12,984 bases of DNA from a virus (IMGVR_UViG_2859799533_000002), one strand, 5' to 3'; shown: positions 7,363 to 12,984, counted from the stretch's first letter. Notes: a model not told the origin generated them from the letters alone. Made by a program: numbers and translations.

Positions 7363-8147
7363 GTTGGAGTCATTACCGAAAATCTCAATGTATTCCCGTA
7401 TTACTGAGATGGCTTCATCCCGGTTATTAAAACGATAGTGGCTCAGGCTCTCATTTTTCAGCGTTCCCCAGAAGCTTTCCATCGGAGCGTTGTCGTAACA
7501 GTGACCTTTACGCGACATTGATGTTTTCAGACCAGACTGCTCCTGTATGACCCGGTAATCGTATGCGCAGTACTGTGAACCTCGATCAGAGTGGTGGATT
7601 AGCCCGGCAGGTGGGCGCTGGCTCCTGAGCGCCATAAACAGGGCTTTACCTGTCAGCTCTTTTGTCATGCGCTCTCCCATGGCGTAGCCGACAATTTCGC
7701 ACGTATAAACATCTTTGATGCCAGCGAGGTACAACCATCCCTCCTGTGTGGCAACATACGTCAGGTACGCCACCCAGACCTGATTTGGTGCTGTAGGAGC
7801 GAACGTCTGGTTCAGCAGATTTGGCGCAACTGGCAGATTGTGGTTCGGGTTCGTAGTCGCTCTGAACTTGCGTTTCTGCTTACAGCGTAGCCTTAGCTCC
7901 TTACGAAGACGTGCCAGTCGGTCACGACCAACGATGATGCCATTCTCTGCCAGCTCCGTCTGGAGCCGCCGGGTTCCATATGTTTCGCGAGTGCGGATAT
8001 GTGCCACCTTAATCTCCAGTTTTAGCCGCTCATCACTTTGTTTTCTGTCTGAGGGTTCATGCTGTACCCAGTTGTAATAACCGCTCCTGGATACACCAAA
8101 TACCTGACACATCGCTTCAATGGGAAATTGTTGTCGCCATTGTTCGA

Positions 8148-8450
8148 TTAACGCGTATTTTTCAGCGACTCCTGTGCAAAATACGCTGTTGCTTTTTTTA
8201 ATATATCTCGCTCAAGGCGAGCTTCATTTAACGCCTTACGCAGTTGCAGAATTTCAGATTCCAGTTCAGCCACCGTGCGGGAACCAGGAGTACCGAGCCC
8301 TTTTCTGGCGGCGGTAACCCATTGTCCTAAAGTGCCTTCAGGAAGGGATAATCGGGAAGCGCCTTCACTGATCGAAAGTTGATTTTCAAGAACCGTTCTG
8401 ACAGCTTCGGCTTTGAACTCTTTAGAGTAACGTTGGTTTTTTCTGCTCAT
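8148..8450 (-). CDS. IS600 OrfA (100 aa, helix-turn-helix)
   Basis: MSRKNQRYSKEFKAEAVRTVLENQLSISEGASRLSLPEGTLGQWV...; identical to the OrfA of the second IS600 copy at 12682-12984. Confidence 0.85.
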   Translation of the reverse strand: MSRKNQRYSKEFKAEAVRTVLENQLSISEGASRLSLPEGTLGQWVTAARKGLGTPGSRTVAELESEILQLRKALNEARLERDILKKATAYFAQESLKNTR

Positions 8451-8638
8451 TATTAGCTCCTTCTGATGCCATTCTATTTCAGGAAGGAGTGTCCGTTAAA
8501 CTCAGGCTACCTCATATGTCGGGCGCTCATCCGGTATAAGGGATCGCGTTCTTAATATCAATGAAACCGCTGATGTATGGTCTGGTAATGCTGCCAACTT
8601 ACTGATTTAGTGTATGATGGTGTTTTTGAGGTGCTCCA

Positions 8639-8914
8639 GTGGCTTCTGTTTCTATCAGCTGTCCCTCCTGTTCAGCTACTGACGGGGTGGTGCGTAACGG
8701 CAAAAGCACTGCCGGACATCAGCGCTATCTCTGCTCTCACTGCCGTAAAACATGGCAACTGCAGTTCACTTACACCGCTTCTCAACCCGGTACGCACCAG
8801 AAAATTATTGATATGGCCATGAATGGCGTTGGATGCCGGGCAACTGCACGCATTATGGGCGTTAGCCTCAACACGATTTTACGTCACTTAAAAAACTCAG
8901 GCCGCAGTCGGTAA
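8639..8914 (+). CDS. insA: IS1 InsA (canonical isoform)
   Basis: [40 protein letters not shown]...; identical to InsA at 9836-10111. Confidence 0.9.
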
Positions 8915-8940
8915 CCTCGCGCATACAACCGGGCAGTGAT

Positions 8941-9336
8941 GTGATTGTCTGCGCTGAAATGGACGAACAGTGGGGCTACGTCGGTGCTAAATCACGTCAG
9001 CGCTGGCTGTTTTACGCGTATGACAGGATACGGAGGACGGTTGTGGCGCACGTCTTCGGTGAACGCACTCTGGCCACACTGGAGCGTCTTCTGAGCCTGC
9101 TGTCGGCCTTTGAGGTCGTGGTATGGATGACGGATGGCTGGCCGCTGTATGAATCACGCCTGAAGGGAAAGCTGCACGTTATCAGCAAGCGTTACACTCA
9201 GCGCATTGAGCGACATAATCTGAATCTGAGACAACATCTGGCAAGGCTGGGACGGAAGTCACTGTCGTTCTCAAAATCGGTGGAGCTGCATGACAAGGTC
9301 ATCGGGCATTATCTGAACATAAAACACTATCAGTAA
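8941..9336 (+). CDS. insB: IS1 InsB frame (InsAB' by frameshift)
   Basis: InsB homolog; the ORF-track start is downstream of the frameshift site, as expected for an InsAB' fusion. Confidence 0.85.
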
Positions 9337-9835
9337 GTTGGAGTCATTACCGTATGGTCTTATGCTTACGGTAATAATTTGCTAACTCTGTCATCAATAT
9401 ATAACCGAAGAATAATGGTTATCTGCCTGGTGTTTGGTTGCCGACAGCAGGAGGCGAGGCTATCCACCTGGGACGAATGGGATTTAAAAAACTGGGTATG
9501 GACAGTCCCAAAAGAGCACAGCAAAAACAAGGAGGCTATAGTAAGGCCTGTTCCTGACGGAATAAAACAATGGATCGTTAATCTTTACGCAGAAACAAAA
9601 AATCGCGGTTATGTTGTCGGTTGTGCTTTGCAAAGGGCGACAATAACAGGGGCTGCAAACAGAATATGCAGGCGTCTTGGTCATGATACTAATGGCTTGT
9701 GGTGCATACATGATTTCAGGCGCACATTTTCCACTACGCTTAATGATATGGGGGCGGATCCTTATATTGTCGAACTTCTTGGTGATGCTGCCAACTTACT
9801 GATTTAGTGTATGATGGTGTTTTTGAGGTGCTCCA

Positions 9836-10111
9836 GTGGCTTCTGTTTCTATCAGCTGTCCCTCCTGTTCAGCTACTGACGGGGTGGTGCGTAACGGCAA
9901 AAGCACTGCCGGACATCAGCGCTATCTCTGCTCTCACTGCCGTAAAACATGGCAACTGCAGTTCACTTACACCGCTTCTCAACCCGGTACGCACCAGAAA
10001 ATTATTGATATGGCCATGAATGGCGTTGGATGCCGGGCAACTGCACGCATTATGGGCGTTAGCCTCAACACGATTTTACGTCACTTAAAAAACTCAGGCC
10101 GCAGTCGGTAA
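9836..10111 (+). CDS. insA: IS1 InsA
   Basis: 91 aa, canonical InsA sequence. Confidence 0.9.
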
Positions 10112-10155
10112 CCTCGCGCATACAGCCGGGCAGTGACGTCATCGTCTGCGCGGAA

Positions 10156-10533
10156 ATGGACGAACAGTGGGGATACGTCGGGGCTAAATCGCGCCAGCGC
10201 TGGCTGTTTTACGCGTATGACAGGCTCCGGAAGACGGTTGTTGCGCACGTATTCGGTGAACGCACTATGGCGACGCTGGGGCGTCTTATGAGCTTGCTGT
10301 CACCCTTTGACGTGGTGATATGGATGACGGATGGCTGGCCACTGTATGAATCCCGCCTGAAGGGAAAGCTGCACGTAATCAGCAAGCGATATACGCAGCG
10401 AATTGAGCGGCATAACCTGAATCTGAGGCAGCACCTGGCACGGCTGGGACGGAAGTCGCTGTCGTTCTCAAAATCGGTGGAGCTGCATGACAAAGTCATC
10501 GGGCATTATCTGAACATAAAACACTATCAATAA
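10156..10533 (+). CDS. insB: IS1 InsB frame (InsAB' by frameshift)
   Basis: Canonical InsB sequence (..[39 protein letters not shown]..). Confidence 0.85.
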
Positions 10534-10711
10534 GTTGGAGTCATTACCGAACTTCTTTTAGGTCATAAAGTGAAAGGGGTTGCTGGTGTTTACAATAAAA
10601 GCAGGCATATAAAGAAAAAACTTGAGGTGCTTAATATGTGGGTTAATTACCTTAATACGATAGCAGGATTTAACAACAACGTTATCGAGCTTAATAAAGA
10701 GGTGGTGTGAT

Positions 10712-10969
10712 ATGGCAATTTATTCTCTTGTTGATGAAAACGATTTGCGCACAATGAAGGACATTGATCGGTTCATTCGTGAAAAAGAGTGCATAGCACT
10801 TACCACGCTGGCAAACTCAACACGCTGGAAAATGGAGCAGGCAGGTAAATTCCCGCGACGTATCAAGATCGGTGAACGTGCTGCAGGGTATCGACTTTCA
10901 GAGGTTCAGGCATGGATCCGTGGTGAGTGGCATCCTGGATGGAAACCTGGAAAAACAAAACAGCAATAA
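10712..10969 (+). CDS. alpA: AlpA-family phage transcriptional regulator / excisionase-like HTH protein
   Basis: 85 aa; ...LTTLANSTRWKMEQAGKFPRRIKIGERAAGYRLSEVQAWIRG matches the AlpA pattern (short HTH, GKFP, basic, W-R-x-SEV-x-AW); GAGG ribosome-binding site; starts 1 bp after the integrase stop. Confidence 0.8.
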   Translation: MAIYSLVDENDLRTMKDIDRFIREKECIALTTLANSTRWKMEQAGKFPRRIKIGERAAGYRLSEVQAWIRGEWHPGWKPGKTKQQ

Positions 10970-10982
10970 CCAGTAAATAATG

Positions 10983-11005
10983 CCCCTCATCACGAGGGGT
11001 TTTTT
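10983..11005 (+). terminator. Intrinsic terminator after alpA
   Basis: CCCCTC-ATCAC-GAGGGG hairpin followed by TTTTTTGTCT. Confidence 0.6.
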
Positions 11006-11025
11006 GTCTATAAGGTAAAAACGCG

Positions 11026-11604
11026 ATGAATAAAAATATTGCCGTGACGGGCAAGGGGTACGCTCGTCCAGTGAAAAAATTCTGCGATATTCGTGATCTC
11101 GTCGTTCTGCGCTTTGATAGTGTGAACGTTCGTGTGGTGTATCTGAACGGCGATCCGTGGTTTGTTGCAAAAGATGTTTGTGCTGCGCTGGAACTAACCA
11201 ATTCGCGTACGGCGTTGCAGATGCTTGATGATGATGAAAAGGGAGTAAATTTAACTTACACCCCAGGAGGAAATCAGAATATGAGAATTATCTCTGAGTC
11301 AGGTTTCTACAAACTAATAGCCCGCAGCCGCAAAGCAACGACGCCTGGCATATTTGCTCATCGTTTCAGTAACTGGGTATTCAGAAATGTGATACCAGGT
11401 ATCAGAAAAACGGGGACTTATGGTATCCCGTGGGGTGCATTACAGGATTTTTCCCGCCGTAAAGAGCAATATCAAATAAGTGCCAGCGAGAAGGGGAGGG
11501 AGCTACAGGCATGTAAGCGCAAAAAGCGTGAGCAGGAGGAAGAAGAAAAAACGCTGATACGTGAATATCAGCCTGAGTTTTACTTTGGTAACCGCATTCA
11601 GTGA
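11026..11604 (+). CDS. BRO-N domain protein (prophage antirepressor-like)
   Basis: 192 aa; N-terminal ...VVYLNGDPWFVAKDVCAALELTN...DDDEKG...IISESGFYKLIARSRKATTPGIFAHRFSNWVFRNVIPGIRKTGTY matches the BRO-N pattern; charged, Glu-rich C-terminus. Confidence 0.8.
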   Translation: MNKNIAVTGKGYARPVKKFCDIRDLVVLRFDSVNVRVVYLNGDPWFVAKDVCAALELTNSRTALQMLDDDEKGVNLTYTPGGNQNMRIISESGFYKLIARSRKATTPGIFAHRFSNWVFRNVIPGIRKTGTYGIPWGALQDFSRRKEQYQISASEKGRELQACKRKKREQEEEEKTLIREYQPEFYFGNRIQ

Positions 11605-11613
11605 CAAAACAAA

Positions 11614-11634
11614 GGCGACCGCAAAAGGGTCGCC
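11614..11634 (-). terminator. Putative intrinsic terminator for the leftward two-gene operon
   Basis: GGCGACC-GCAAAAG-GGTCGCC hairpin; on the minus strand it is followed by TTTGTTTTGT; 67 bp downstream of the 59-aa ORF stop. Confidence 0.5.
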
Positions 11635-11700
11635 AGTGGGAACAAGGGAAAACAAAAGCATCACCAACAATGCCACATTTGCGGCTGGTGGGCAATGTGA

Positions 11701-11880
11701 TCAGTCAGATTTGGTTCGTTCCAAGGTTTGCAACGAGAGCTTTTTCCTGTGCTCTTTAAGGAATTTCTCAAGAGCAAACGAACAAGGTGCGAATCTTTCT
11801 GATTCATGTTCATGCGCTATATTTTTGCGTCGTCTCTTACGAGTTGGTGATGGTGTTTTGGTTGATTCTGTGTCGCTCAT
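11701..11880 (-). CDS. Hypothetical 59-aa basic protein (not in the supplied ORF track)
   Basis: Hand translation of the reverse complement: MSDTESTKTPSPTRKRRRKNIAHEHESERFAPCSFALEKFLKEHRKKLSLQTLERTKSD*; ATG at 11878-11880, TGA at 11701-11703; AGGA about 9 nt upstream; 57 bp downstream of and co-oriented with the RHH-like gene; followed by the terminator at 11614-11634. Confidence 0.5.
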   Translation of the reverse strand: MSDTESTKTPSPTRKRRRKNIAHEHESERFAPCSFALEKFLKEHRKKLSLQTLERTKSD

Positions 11881-11937
11881 GGTGCTGTCCTGTAAAGCAA
11901 TGCGCCTGCGTTCCTCAAACTATGGCGCTGATATTGG

Positions 11938-12243
11938 CTATTCATGCTCTTTGACCTTGCGTCGCTGGAGTTCTTCACGCGCGACGGTGACGAGTTGCCC
12001 GATCTCCTCGGCTGCTTTGATGCCGATTTGTTCGACCTTAGCCAGGGCATCCAGTGACGACACAAGGGGATTTTCTCCGCTGCCTTCTGCTTGGCGGCGG
12101 GCCATTTCTCCGCGCATGGCGGTTACGATAAATCCGGCATTGCTTTCACCGTCCAGCTTAACGGATTCCATCCCTTGCATAACATCTAGTGGGACTCTGA
12201 CAGTTGTCAGTTGTGATTTTGCGTTTTTGTTAGCCGTTGCCAT
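11938..12243 (-). CDS. Putative ribbon-helix-helix (Arc/CopG-like) DNA-binding protein with C-terminal extension
   Basis: 101 aa; AGGAG ribosome-binding site 8 nt before the ATG; N-terminal TTVRVPLDVMQGMESVKLDGESNAGFIVTAMRGEMARR fits the strand-helix-helix pattern (compare Arc ...NGRSVNSEIYQRVM). Fold assignment is by pattern only. Confidence 0.55.
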   Translation of the reverse strand: MATANKNAKSQLTTVRVPLDVMQGMESVKLDGESNAGFIVTAMRGEMARRQAEGSGENPLVSSLDALAKVEQIGIKAAEEIGQLVTVAREELQRRKVKEHE

Positions 12244-12304
12244 TTCTGAAACTCCTAATCATCGGTGTGTTTCAGTATACACAAAAAAAGAAATACAAAA
12301 AGCC

Positions 12305-12342
12305 TTGACGTGTGTTTCATGCGCTCATAACATGAAACACAC
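12305..12342 (+). promoter_or_regulatory. Rightward sigma70-like promoter overlapped by a perfect 12-bp inverted-repeat operator
   Basis: TTGACG (12305-12310), 17-bp spacer, TAACAT (12328-12333); inverted repeat GTGTGTTTCATG (12310-12321) / CATGAAACACAC (12331-12342) with 9-bp spacer; a further GTGTGTTTCA half-site at 12265-12274; direct repeat GAAATACAAA at 12290-12299 and 12356-12365. Confidence 0.5.
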
Positions 12343-12433
12343 CGAAAGGATTGTTGAAATACAAAGAGCAACGCCCCGCAGTGCTGGGAACACATACGGG
12401 GCGTCTAACCAACAACGTAAACTAGGAGCCGTT

Positions 12434-12625
12434 ATGGTTGCTGTAAATCATATACCACACCTTGTACACACACAAACGGCCTTTGTGTGGCGTTTTCTGG
12501 CACTGAGTGCCGGAGAATCTCAAATCATCCACGTAACCGCCTGGACGGAACGCGAAGCGCGTAGCCGTTGCCCGTCCGGTTGTGTTGCTGTATTCGCTGC
12601 AAAAATCCGCCAGGGAGTGAGGTAG
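12434..12625 (+). CDS. Small rightward ORF of unknown function; native C-terminus replaced by IS600 after codon 61
   Basis: AGGAG 5 nt upstream of the ATG at 12434; MVAVNHIPHLVHTQTAFVWRFLALSAGESQIIHVTAWTEREARSRCPSGCVAVFAAKIRQG then VR* supplied by the IS600 terminus at 12618; it is the only well-initiated part of the otherwise implausible 354-aa ORF-track ORF. Confidence 0.35.
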   Translation: MVAVNHIPHLVHTQTAFVWRFLALSAGESQIIHVTAWTEREARSRCPSGCVAVFAAKIRQGVR

Positions 12626-12984
12626 CCTGAGTTTAACGGACACTCCTTCCTGAAATAGAATGGCATCAGAAGGAGCTAATAATGAGCAGAAAAAACCAAC
12701 GTTACTCTAAAGAGTTCAAAGCCGAAGCTGTCAGAACGGTTCTTGAAAATCAACTTTCGATCAGTGAAGGCGCTTCCCGATTATCCCTTCCTGAAGGCAC
12801 TTTAGGACAATGGGTTACCGCCGCCAGAAAAGGGCTCGGTACTCCTGGTTCCCGCACGGTGGCTGAACTGGAATCTGAAATTCTGCAACTGCGTAAGGCG
12901 TTAAATGAAGCTCGCCTTGAGCGAGATATATTAAAAAAAGCAACAGCGTATTTTGCACAGGAGTCGCTGAAAAATACGCGTTAA
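12618..12984 (+). mobile_element. IS600 second copy, left end (continues beyond the window)
   Basis: TGAGGTAGCCTGAGTTTAACGGACACTCCTTCCTGAAATAGAATGGCATCAGAAGGAGCTAATAATG is the reverse complement of the 8450-8514 terminus of the first copy. Confidence 0.9.
12682..12984 (+). CDS. IS600 OrfA (100 aa)
   Basis: Identical protein to the ORF at 8148-8450; its stop codon is the last triplet of the window. Confidence 0.9.
   Translation: MSRKNQRYSKEFKAEAVRTVLENQLSISEGASRLSLPEGTLGQWVTAARKGLGTPGSRTVAELESEILQLRKALNEARLERDILKKATAYFAQESLKNTR

Follow-up and report, generated by a model that had tools for sequence, protein, structure and literature searches.

The window, i.e., the whole 12,984-nucleotide stretch of DNA that was analysed, ends inside an insertion sequence, IS600, which bounds the remnant of a satellite element. 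The right part of this remnant contains an Icd-like gene, a leftward gene of the YlcI/YnfO family and, between them, a switch region with a perfect inverted repeat. The features assigned are as follows.

8148..8514, minus strand: second IS600 end, inverted, cutting the satellite integrase gene (self-BLAST)
11938..12243, minus strand: candidate leftward regulator of the YlcI/YnfO family, 101 aa (NCBIfam NF041551, E = 6.5e-16)
12305..12333, plus strand: rightward promoter-like site, TTGACG-17-TAACAT, ahead of the icd-replication operon, with a leader at about 12340-12433
12358..12370, minus strand: U-rich tail 3′ of the hairpin stem, UUGCUCUUUGUAU (T content of 48 flanks)
12371..12404, minus strand: hairpin SL2, with a stem that reads as an intrinsic terminator, 5′-ACGCCCCGUAUGUG-UUCCCAG-CACUGCGGGGCGU-3′ (inverted repeat, folding and alignment)
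12405..12441, minus strand: SL1, the 5′ part of a predicted antisense RNA, complementary to the icd Shine–Dalgarno sequence (SD) and start codon (folding)
12434..12625, plus strand: Icd-like (host cell division inhibitor) gene (NF033153 match, RefSeq alleles and alignment to the intact allele)
12447..12475, minus strand: antisense promoter-like site, TTGTGT (12475-12470), 17 nt, TATGAT (12452-12447)
12618..12984, plus strand: left end of IS600 (IS3 family), running up to the last base of the window; 100% identity to annotated IS600

The segment 12618-12984 matches loci annotated as “IS3-like element IS600 family transposase” on Shigella plasmids with 100% identity over 367 nt, and orfA occupies 12682-12984. 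The segment 8148-8514 is the exact reverse complement of 12984-12618 (self-BLAST, 100%). Since the homology of this second copy stops exactly at 12618, the IS terminus is fixed at that position; the second copy and the annotated IS600 both confirm the terminus proposed in an earlier reading made from the sequence only. The two inverted ends, with their orfA ends facing inward, bound a satellite remnant of 4.1 kb (8515-12617). Past 8514, the sequence matches the intact relative L210 from position 8941 onward, the inverted IS600 having taken the place of the first 600 nt of int (L210 8341-8940). In addition, int is split by two IS1 copies (8583-9352 and 9780-10549), with target duplications of 9-10 bp as judged against an intact E. 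coli relative. The inverted bracket suggests an IS600-mediated inversion or deletion, not a simple insertion. The IS600 ends and the IS1-hit integrase fit decay or rearrangement, and do not by themselves prove a deletion of cargo. A 36-nt sequence spanning the IS600 junction had no exact match in species-representative genomes, and the junction was found in none of 5,426 E. coli genomes, the best match stopping at 12621. Further IS1 copies lie at 1336-1953 and 6607-7378, a full IS600 copy ends at 8514, and three tRNA genes and the sRNA STnc100 (139 bits) are located upstream, at 4366-4612 and 4692-4882. The IS-rich surroundings fit a Shigella-type chromosome.

In intact relatives, the Icd-like gene is followed rightward by three to four small ORFs and by genes for a DUF4222 protein, primase, SSB, major capsid protein, head decoration protein and an HTH protein; some relatives add the small subunit of terminase (TerS) and defence genes. 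Upstream they carry int, an AlpA-like HTH gene, a BRO-N or hypothetical gene and the YlcI/YnfO-family gene on the minus strand. The intact elements reside in lambdoid prophages, where they interrupt the gene for the capsid or the portal protein. In the relative L210, the block of DUF4222, primase, SSB and capsid genes occupies 11496-18222. The earlier suggestion that a rightward promoter drove replication or cargo genes and that this unit was interrupted agrees with these alleles, which feature a long operon that is cut by IS600 in the window. Relatives 99.9% identical to the window copy possess all the features of Gram-negative phage-inducible chromosomal islands (PICIs) or helper-embedded PICIs and, like the PICI EcCICFT073, contain int, an AlpA-like HTH gene, a Bro zone, icd, DUF4222, primase, SSB, capsid, decoration and TerS genes, an architecture outlined in PMC6092414 (Fillol-Salom 2018) and PMC10111431. 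The window copy differs from PICIs in being a 4.1-kb remnant where the replication and late zones are absent and int is disrupted; of the feature set, it retains a partial int with two IS1, an AlpA-like HTH gene, BRO-N, a ylcI-like gene and an icd-like gene. On its gene content, it is evidently the remnant of a PICI member and not a functional member.

The ORF beginning with ATG at 12434 is preceded by AGGAG at 12424-12428, just as the sequence-only reading had placed them, and is translated into 63 aa and a stop. The protein matches NCBIfam NF033153 with 63.8 bits (curated cut-off 25; E = 1.1e-17), with positions 1-48 of the 48-position profile aligned to residues 17-60. A search of 5,426 complete E. 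coli genomes with 12244-12617, the check put forward together with that reading, yielded many 100% matches annotated in RefSeq as “host cell division inhibitor Icd-like protein”, and the uninterrupted alleles encode a 65-codon Icd-like gene. By profile and homology, the 63-codon ORF can be assigned as an Icd-like protein, with a predicted role in the inhibition of cell division. The native allele ends with ...KIRQGVSHA* and the window copy with ...KIRQGVR*, so that it differs from the family copies in the replacement of the C-terminal SHA with R. Family members, which are 65-72 aa long, vary in this C-terminal tail (GVSHA, EVCHE, GETYAQ, GVGL and others). The native sequence and the IS end have TGAG in common, so that identity to the uninterrupted allele extends to 12621 and the last native base falls within 12617-12621. 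In the native allele, the ATG of the next ORF overlaps the icd stop codon (GTGAGTCATGCTTAA), and IS600 is situated 3 nt ahead of that ATG. Thus, of the interrupted ORF described earlier, the IS600 junction stands, and the notion of a fragment of a large gene does not, the native gene having only 65 codons and the profile being matched in full. A 354-codon ORF with a GTG start (11561-12625, plus strand) was rejected as spurious; it is antisense to the YlcI/YnfO gene, crosses the intergenic switch and then enters the icd frame.

The rightward promoter that had been proposed ahead of the ORF corresponds to the promoter-like sequence TTGACG-17-TAACAT at 12305-12333. It is overlapped by GTGTGTTTCA repeats, two of them direct (12265-12274 and 12310-12319) and one inverted (12333-12345). 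These three copies, of the form (C)GGTGTGTTTCA, lie in 12262-12345, over the −35 and the start region of this promoter, and related elements have their own, differing repeats (e.g., GTGTACACCT, TGTGCGCACA and ATGGTAATTACC). Element-specific repeats are as expected for element-specific operators. The leftward gene is annotated as a member of the YlcI/YnfO family in the intact relatives as well. Just upstream of this gene, TGTGTATACT (window 12279-12274, TATACT on the minus strand) is conserved in the window and EcCICFT073 and may be a weak −10 of a leftward promoter; no acceptable −35 was found for this site. A boxA/nut-like reading of AAAGAGCAACG was dropped, GCAACG alone being conserved across the elements.

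Between the rightward promoter and icd, the arms ACGCCCCG (12371-12378) and CGGGGCGT (12397-12404) are 100% complementary over 8 bp, GC-rich and separated by 18 nt, and the perfect stem with an 18-nt loop noted earlier is borne out. Perfect 8-bp stems with loops of 3-20 nt occur 18 times in the window against 3.7 expected from shuffles, and those with at least seven G/C pairs occur twice against 0.17 expected. By itself the hairpin is mildly unusual, and its significance comes from conservation. A chance inverted repeat devoid of function, which the 18 perfect stems of the window might suggest, is effectively refuted by conservation with compensatory changes across hundreds of elements, and we regard its probability as close to nil.

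The 51-nt hairpin motif is present in 999 of 5,426 complete E. coli genomes (~18%). The model PICI EcCICFT073 has it too (NC_004431, about 1380770-1380870), as do 101 plasmids from Klebsiella, Escherichia, Salmonella, Enterobacter, Raoultella and Pantoea. The distance from the hairpin to the downstream ATG of an Icd-like gene is always 25-36 nt. The GCAACGCCCCGCAGTG-loop-CACATRCRGGGCGTCTAACCA block is kept in all of five elements that share neither operators nor promoters and that differ in their Icd N-termini, and the hairpin and an adjacent CTAACCA box are kept while the upstream promoters and operators are unrelated between elements. The left boundary of many BLAST matches falls at query positions 118-130, immediately 5′ of the hairpin, and there are matches that span the hairpin region alone. 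Judged by these alignments, the hairpin behaves as a conserved, separable module. None of the 4,227 Rfam families, searched on both strands of 12200-12660, matches the element.

The strand carrying the pairing was assessed with 28 distinct hairpin variants, obtained partly from a DNA pattern scan and partly from protein-anchored loci. The first set of loci was fetched with a pattern fixing one arm, and the later sets were anchored on the protein; a protein-anchored search of genome contigs returned three loci, and an alignment of eight sequences (A2) was too divergent as a search query. In alignment A4, taken in the minus orientation, 96.7% of 367 cells pair, compared to 87% on the plus strand, the sequences being related by descent and mostly from Escherichia, so that cell counts are not independent events. 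Compensatory changes are found at four pairs (C-G/A-U, C-G/U-A twice and G-C/C-G), and none of 500 shuffles reached the pairing or the covariation of A4. The stem positions that deviate from Watson–Crick pairing on the plus strand are all C.A or A.C, which correspond to G.U on the minus strand: 35 cells at eight pair positions are G.U on the minus strand only, and none on the plus strand only. As G-C pairs allow both kinds of transition, the 8:0 split argues for selection on the minus-strand fold.

Folding with RNAfold pointed in the same direction. Of the 28 variants, 26 are more stable as minus-strand RNA, with a mean difference of 5.0 kcal/mol, and nearly all variants form on this strand a continuous stem of 13-14 bp with one bulge (−19 to −25 kcal/mol). 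For the window, the energy of SL2 alone is −23.1 kcal/mol (z = −5.5) as minus-strand RNA and −17.7 kcal/mol (z = −3.1) as plus-strand RNA. The minus strand is rich in G+U, which favours folding by itself, and shuffle controls counter this for SL2 and for most classes of SL1. The conserved pairing of the hairpin is probably located on the minus strand, opposite to icd.

These data bear on the reading of the hairpin as an element of the rightward mRNA leader, where it might stabilise the 5′ end, be cut by RNase III, cause pausing or antitermination, or take part in the translation of icd. The plus-strand hairpin does form with the energy given above and lies within the predicted 5′ UTR, and in plus-strand RNA the CTAACCA box can also pair with the start region, AUGGUU. 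Any antisense RNA would have the sense hairpin as its kissing partner, in which case the structures of the two strands may both be relevant. Nevertheless, all 35 non-Watson–Crick cells become C.A on the plus strand, where the share of paired cells is also lower, and the plus-strand folds are irregular, being weaker in 26 of the 28 variants. The fold of the whole plus-strand leader is unremarkable (z = −1.12), SL1 is never significant on the plus strand, the plus strand continues after the stem with CUAACCAAC, which has no U-tract, and the Rfam search gave no family. We consider a leader function unlikely; the possible rightward leader structure of the sequence-only reading is probably not what is conserved here, the comparative pairing data favouring the opposite strand.

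On the minus strand, a G+C-rich stem-loop is followed directly by a U-rich tract, the sequence arrangement of an intrinsic terminator. Just past the stem, T is enriched in 48 distinct flanks that are otherwise unrelated, with a mean of 6.1 T in positions 1-10 and of 2.7 in the next 10 nt. Examples of minus-strand tails are UUGCUCUUUGU and UUGUUUUUUGU; the U-tract is interrupted (as in UUGCUCUUUGU), and a few flanks have T runs of just 1-2.

The CTAACCA box (plus strand, 12405-12411) constitutes the 3′ strand of a second minus-strand hairpin, SL1. An 84-nt minus-strand RNA (12441..12358) is predicted to fold into two hairpins with −33.6 kcal/mol (z = −4.4). In all 37 distinct types, the segment of 36-38 nt that separates the stem from the icd start has the more stable fold as minus-strand RNA, by 6.1 kcal/mol on average. 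Dinucleotide shuffles of SL1 in 11 classes gave z values from −1.45 to −5.6 on the minus strand, the weakest class being the window type (z = −1.45), and from −1.6 to +0.3, never significant, on the plus strand. Applied to the whole 84-nt alignment, RNAalifold found SL2 but no more of SL1 than its base, as the inner part of SL1 cannot be aligned from one class to another; the support for SL1 thus comes from the folds and shuffles of individual sequences. Overall, the secondary structure conserved on the strand antisense to icd is of the sort expected for a cis-antisense sRNA.

A candidate promoter for such an RNA lies within icd. The site TTGTGT-17-TATGAT matches the sigma-70 consensus at 8 of 12 positions and is the sole minus-strand site of at least 8/12 in 12230-12500; it is part of a coding sequence. 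Transcription from this site is predicted to begin near 12439-12442, inside icd codons 2-3. The last base of the −10 is separated from the stem by ~43 nt in 51 of 51 distinct downstream types, while the offset of the ATG varies from 29 to 36 nt. Two promoter architectures are distributed by lineage, TTGTGT-17-TATGMT and an extended −10, TGgTATGAT, and the −10-like hexamer occurs as TATGAT, TATGCT, TACGAT, TATAAT and TATAGT. The bases −12T, −11A and −7T are invariant, and the overlapping codons vary (N/Q/E; H/Y/R; T/I/S/N); a part of the conservation of the site could still act at the protein level (N-H-T/I motif). The hexamer is present in all 38 distinct icd genes of the hairpin type and in none of 13 icd genes associated with the C4 RNA. 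The predicted RNA, ~12440-12360, covers both the icd SD (12424-12428) and the ATG (12434-12436).

Two other points concern this region. Inside icd, the plus strand of 12469-12489 contains a terminator-like hairpin, CACACAAACGGCCTTTGTGTG, with the tail GCGTTTTCTG reaching 12499. The segment codes for the conserved ...TAFVWRF... and shares sequence with the −35 predicted for the antisense RNA; the hairpin may be coincidental or may serve the rightward operon as an internal attenuator. A minus-strand protein gene ending before the hairpin was rejected, the antisense ORFs having 0-127 codons among near-identical elements and many of them being broken.

The minus-strand hairpin could instead belong to a longer leftward transcript, with no stand-alone regulatory RNA. 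The promoter-like site inside icd would then be a distal promoter of the YlcI/YnfO-type gene and the hairpin a terminator or attenuator controlling read-through, or the hairpin would only insulate the operators from antisense transcription. Coliphages 186 and P2 have promoter switches of similar, face-to-face geometry, and 12244-12370 contains no other sigma-70-like site of at least 8/12 ahead of the leftward gene. With a stem of −19 to −25 kcal/mol and a U-tract, though, most transcripts should stop, and the conserved TGTGTATACT suggests that the leftward gene has a weak −10 of its own. Moreover, the leftward genes differ completely between elements, and the antisense unit stays constant. We judge this arrangement to be decidedly unlikely.

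Another explanation places the function at the DNA level, the hairpin serving in single-stranded form for replication or priming, or marking a recombination hot spot at a module boundary, with no function as RNA. The breakpoint of module homology lies just 5′ of the hairpin, G.T pairs are tolerated in single-stranded DNA hairpins too, and the operon encodes a primase and an SSB. A DNA element leaves unexplained the T-rich tail, the second stem-loop over the ribosome-binding site and the co-occurring −10-like hexamer, and the origins of PICIs are placed beside the primase genes, unlike the hairpin, in PMC10111431. This explanation seems very improbable.

It appears fairly probable from the comparative data that the hairpin is the terminator of a cis-antisense RNA directed against the translation start of icd. 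The strand-specific conservation of both stems, the U-rich tail and the co-occurrence of the hexamer with the hairpin are observations; the production of the RNA is a prediction. In the proposed mechanism, the rightward promoter at 12305-12333 would give a leader of ~94 nt and the small Icd-like gene, the first cistron of the replication and late operon in the intact elements. TTGTGT-17-TATGAT (12475-12447) would start a minus-strand RNA at ~12440, within icd codons 2-3. This antisense RNA of ~80 nt would run leftward over the icd start codon and SD, fold its 5′ part into SL1 and stop at SL2 and the U-tract, at ~12360. By pairing with the icd translation-initiation region, it would block icd translation, and the block might lower the expression of the overlapping, probably translationally coupled genes downstream by loss of coupling or by polarity, an outline drawn by analogy with C4 on icd-ant in P1, CI in P4 and sar in P22. 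An RNA layer would thereby be added to the protein switch made up of the YlcI/YnfO-type gene and the GTGTGTTTCA repeats. Our confidence in the regulatory outcome, i.e., the translation block and polarity, is lower than in the antisense terminator. The window keeps the whole predicted antisense unit, the promoter and a near-complete icd, IS600 having disconnected the operon that they would control.

Small RNAs of the leader are known from related positions. C4 of P1 and P7 and CI of P4 are encoded directly upstream of an icd or kil gene that heads an early operon (c4-icd-ant in P1; cI-kil-alpha in P4). In P1, C4 acts on the icd ribosome-binding site and, via icd translation, on the genes behind it. 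The window ORF matches end to end the profile of NF033153, the family of P1 Icd and P4 Kil, and its identity to P4 Kil is 29%. An immunity RNA of the P4-CI/C4 type in the leader was rejected, as RF01695 (gathering threshold 45 bits) gave no match in 12200-12660 even at E ≤ 10, with positive controls of 74.9 bits for P4 and 72-79 bits for satellites of the C4 type. The two kinds of RNA are alike in being small and located at the leader directly upstream of an icd/kil gene. C4 and CI are encoded on the same strand as icd, are processed from the leader, have a cloverleaf-like fold and use separate complementary sites (targets isrK/seqA and c4-a1b1), whereas the window unit is an opposite-strand structure with a two-hairpin fold and its own terminator. 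Close Icd homologues (62-75% identity) have C4 and isrK in the slot occupied here by the hairpin module, which supports the view of this slot as reserved for an RNA regulator of icd. The P4 CI system is summarised in PMC10111431.

In some elements, the two types of RNA module occur together, in tandem with as many as three Icd-like genes. In an IMG/VR contig (L222 230-1250) and in E. coli matches H56-H62, the order is a hairpin leader with a partial icd, then isrK, C4 and icd, and then a second C4 with icd.

The cis-antisense RNAs of phages provide another parallel. P22 sar, which acts against the ant ribosome-binding site, and lambda OOP, which acts against cII, are ~70-80 nt long. Their promoters are inside or beside the target, they overlap its initiation region or its end, they terminate intrinsically, and they form a second layer of control on an early operon. 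The predicted window RNA is like sar and OOP in its expected size, in its overlap with the translation-initiation region of the target and in its terminator-like end, and has a candidate promoter inside the target; it differs in having no sequence or Rfam relationship to them and in its target, a satellite Icd-like gene. The 84-nt unit had no match in the phage genome collection, and the motif sequence occurs in none of the papers of the library searched. The searched sections of the PICI papers (including PMC6092414 and PMC10111431) do not describe the RNA element. Cis-antisense sRNAs that carry a terminator of their own are a well-known class, and this RNA family appears to be new.

The cassette is also carried by plasmids. 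In the IncY plasmid NZ_CP021681 (E. coli, L211 3760-4490) and ~98 other plasmids, it is located directly upstream of a WYL (BrxR-like) gene and BREX, with hosts in Klebsiella, Escherichia, Salmonella and Enterobacter. Its parts are a small gene read leftward, operators, the promoter for rightward transcription, the hairpin together with the CTAACCA box, an antisense −10 and an Icd-like N-terminus joined to a C-terminal portion of another kind.

The Icd-like gene and the IS600 cut are ordinary parts of the locus, a dead satellite remnant with an essentially intact icd in an IS-ridden, Shigella-like genome; the interest lies in the reassignment of the strand and in the candidate RNA. The global repressor of Gram-negative PICIs is described as unclear in PMC6092414, the founding paper. 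As a bolder conjecture, which we hold to be doubtful, the antisense RNA might be the missing maintenance (“immunity”) repressor of these islands, replacing P4 CI and P1 C4 and keeping the icd-primase operon silent until a helper is active; the variable loops on conserved stems would then define specificity groups among co-resident satellites, and the cassette would have been co-opted to gate BrxR-BREX loci on plasmids. Two unrelated RNA solutions, the sense C4 RNA and the predicted antisense unit, share the slot ahead of the Icd gene family. As widespread satellites, Gram-negative PICIs mobilise genes for virulence and defence, and the predicted antisense RNA on the first gene of the replication operon would be a candidate layer of PICI repression, encoded in ~18% of complete E. 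coli genomes.
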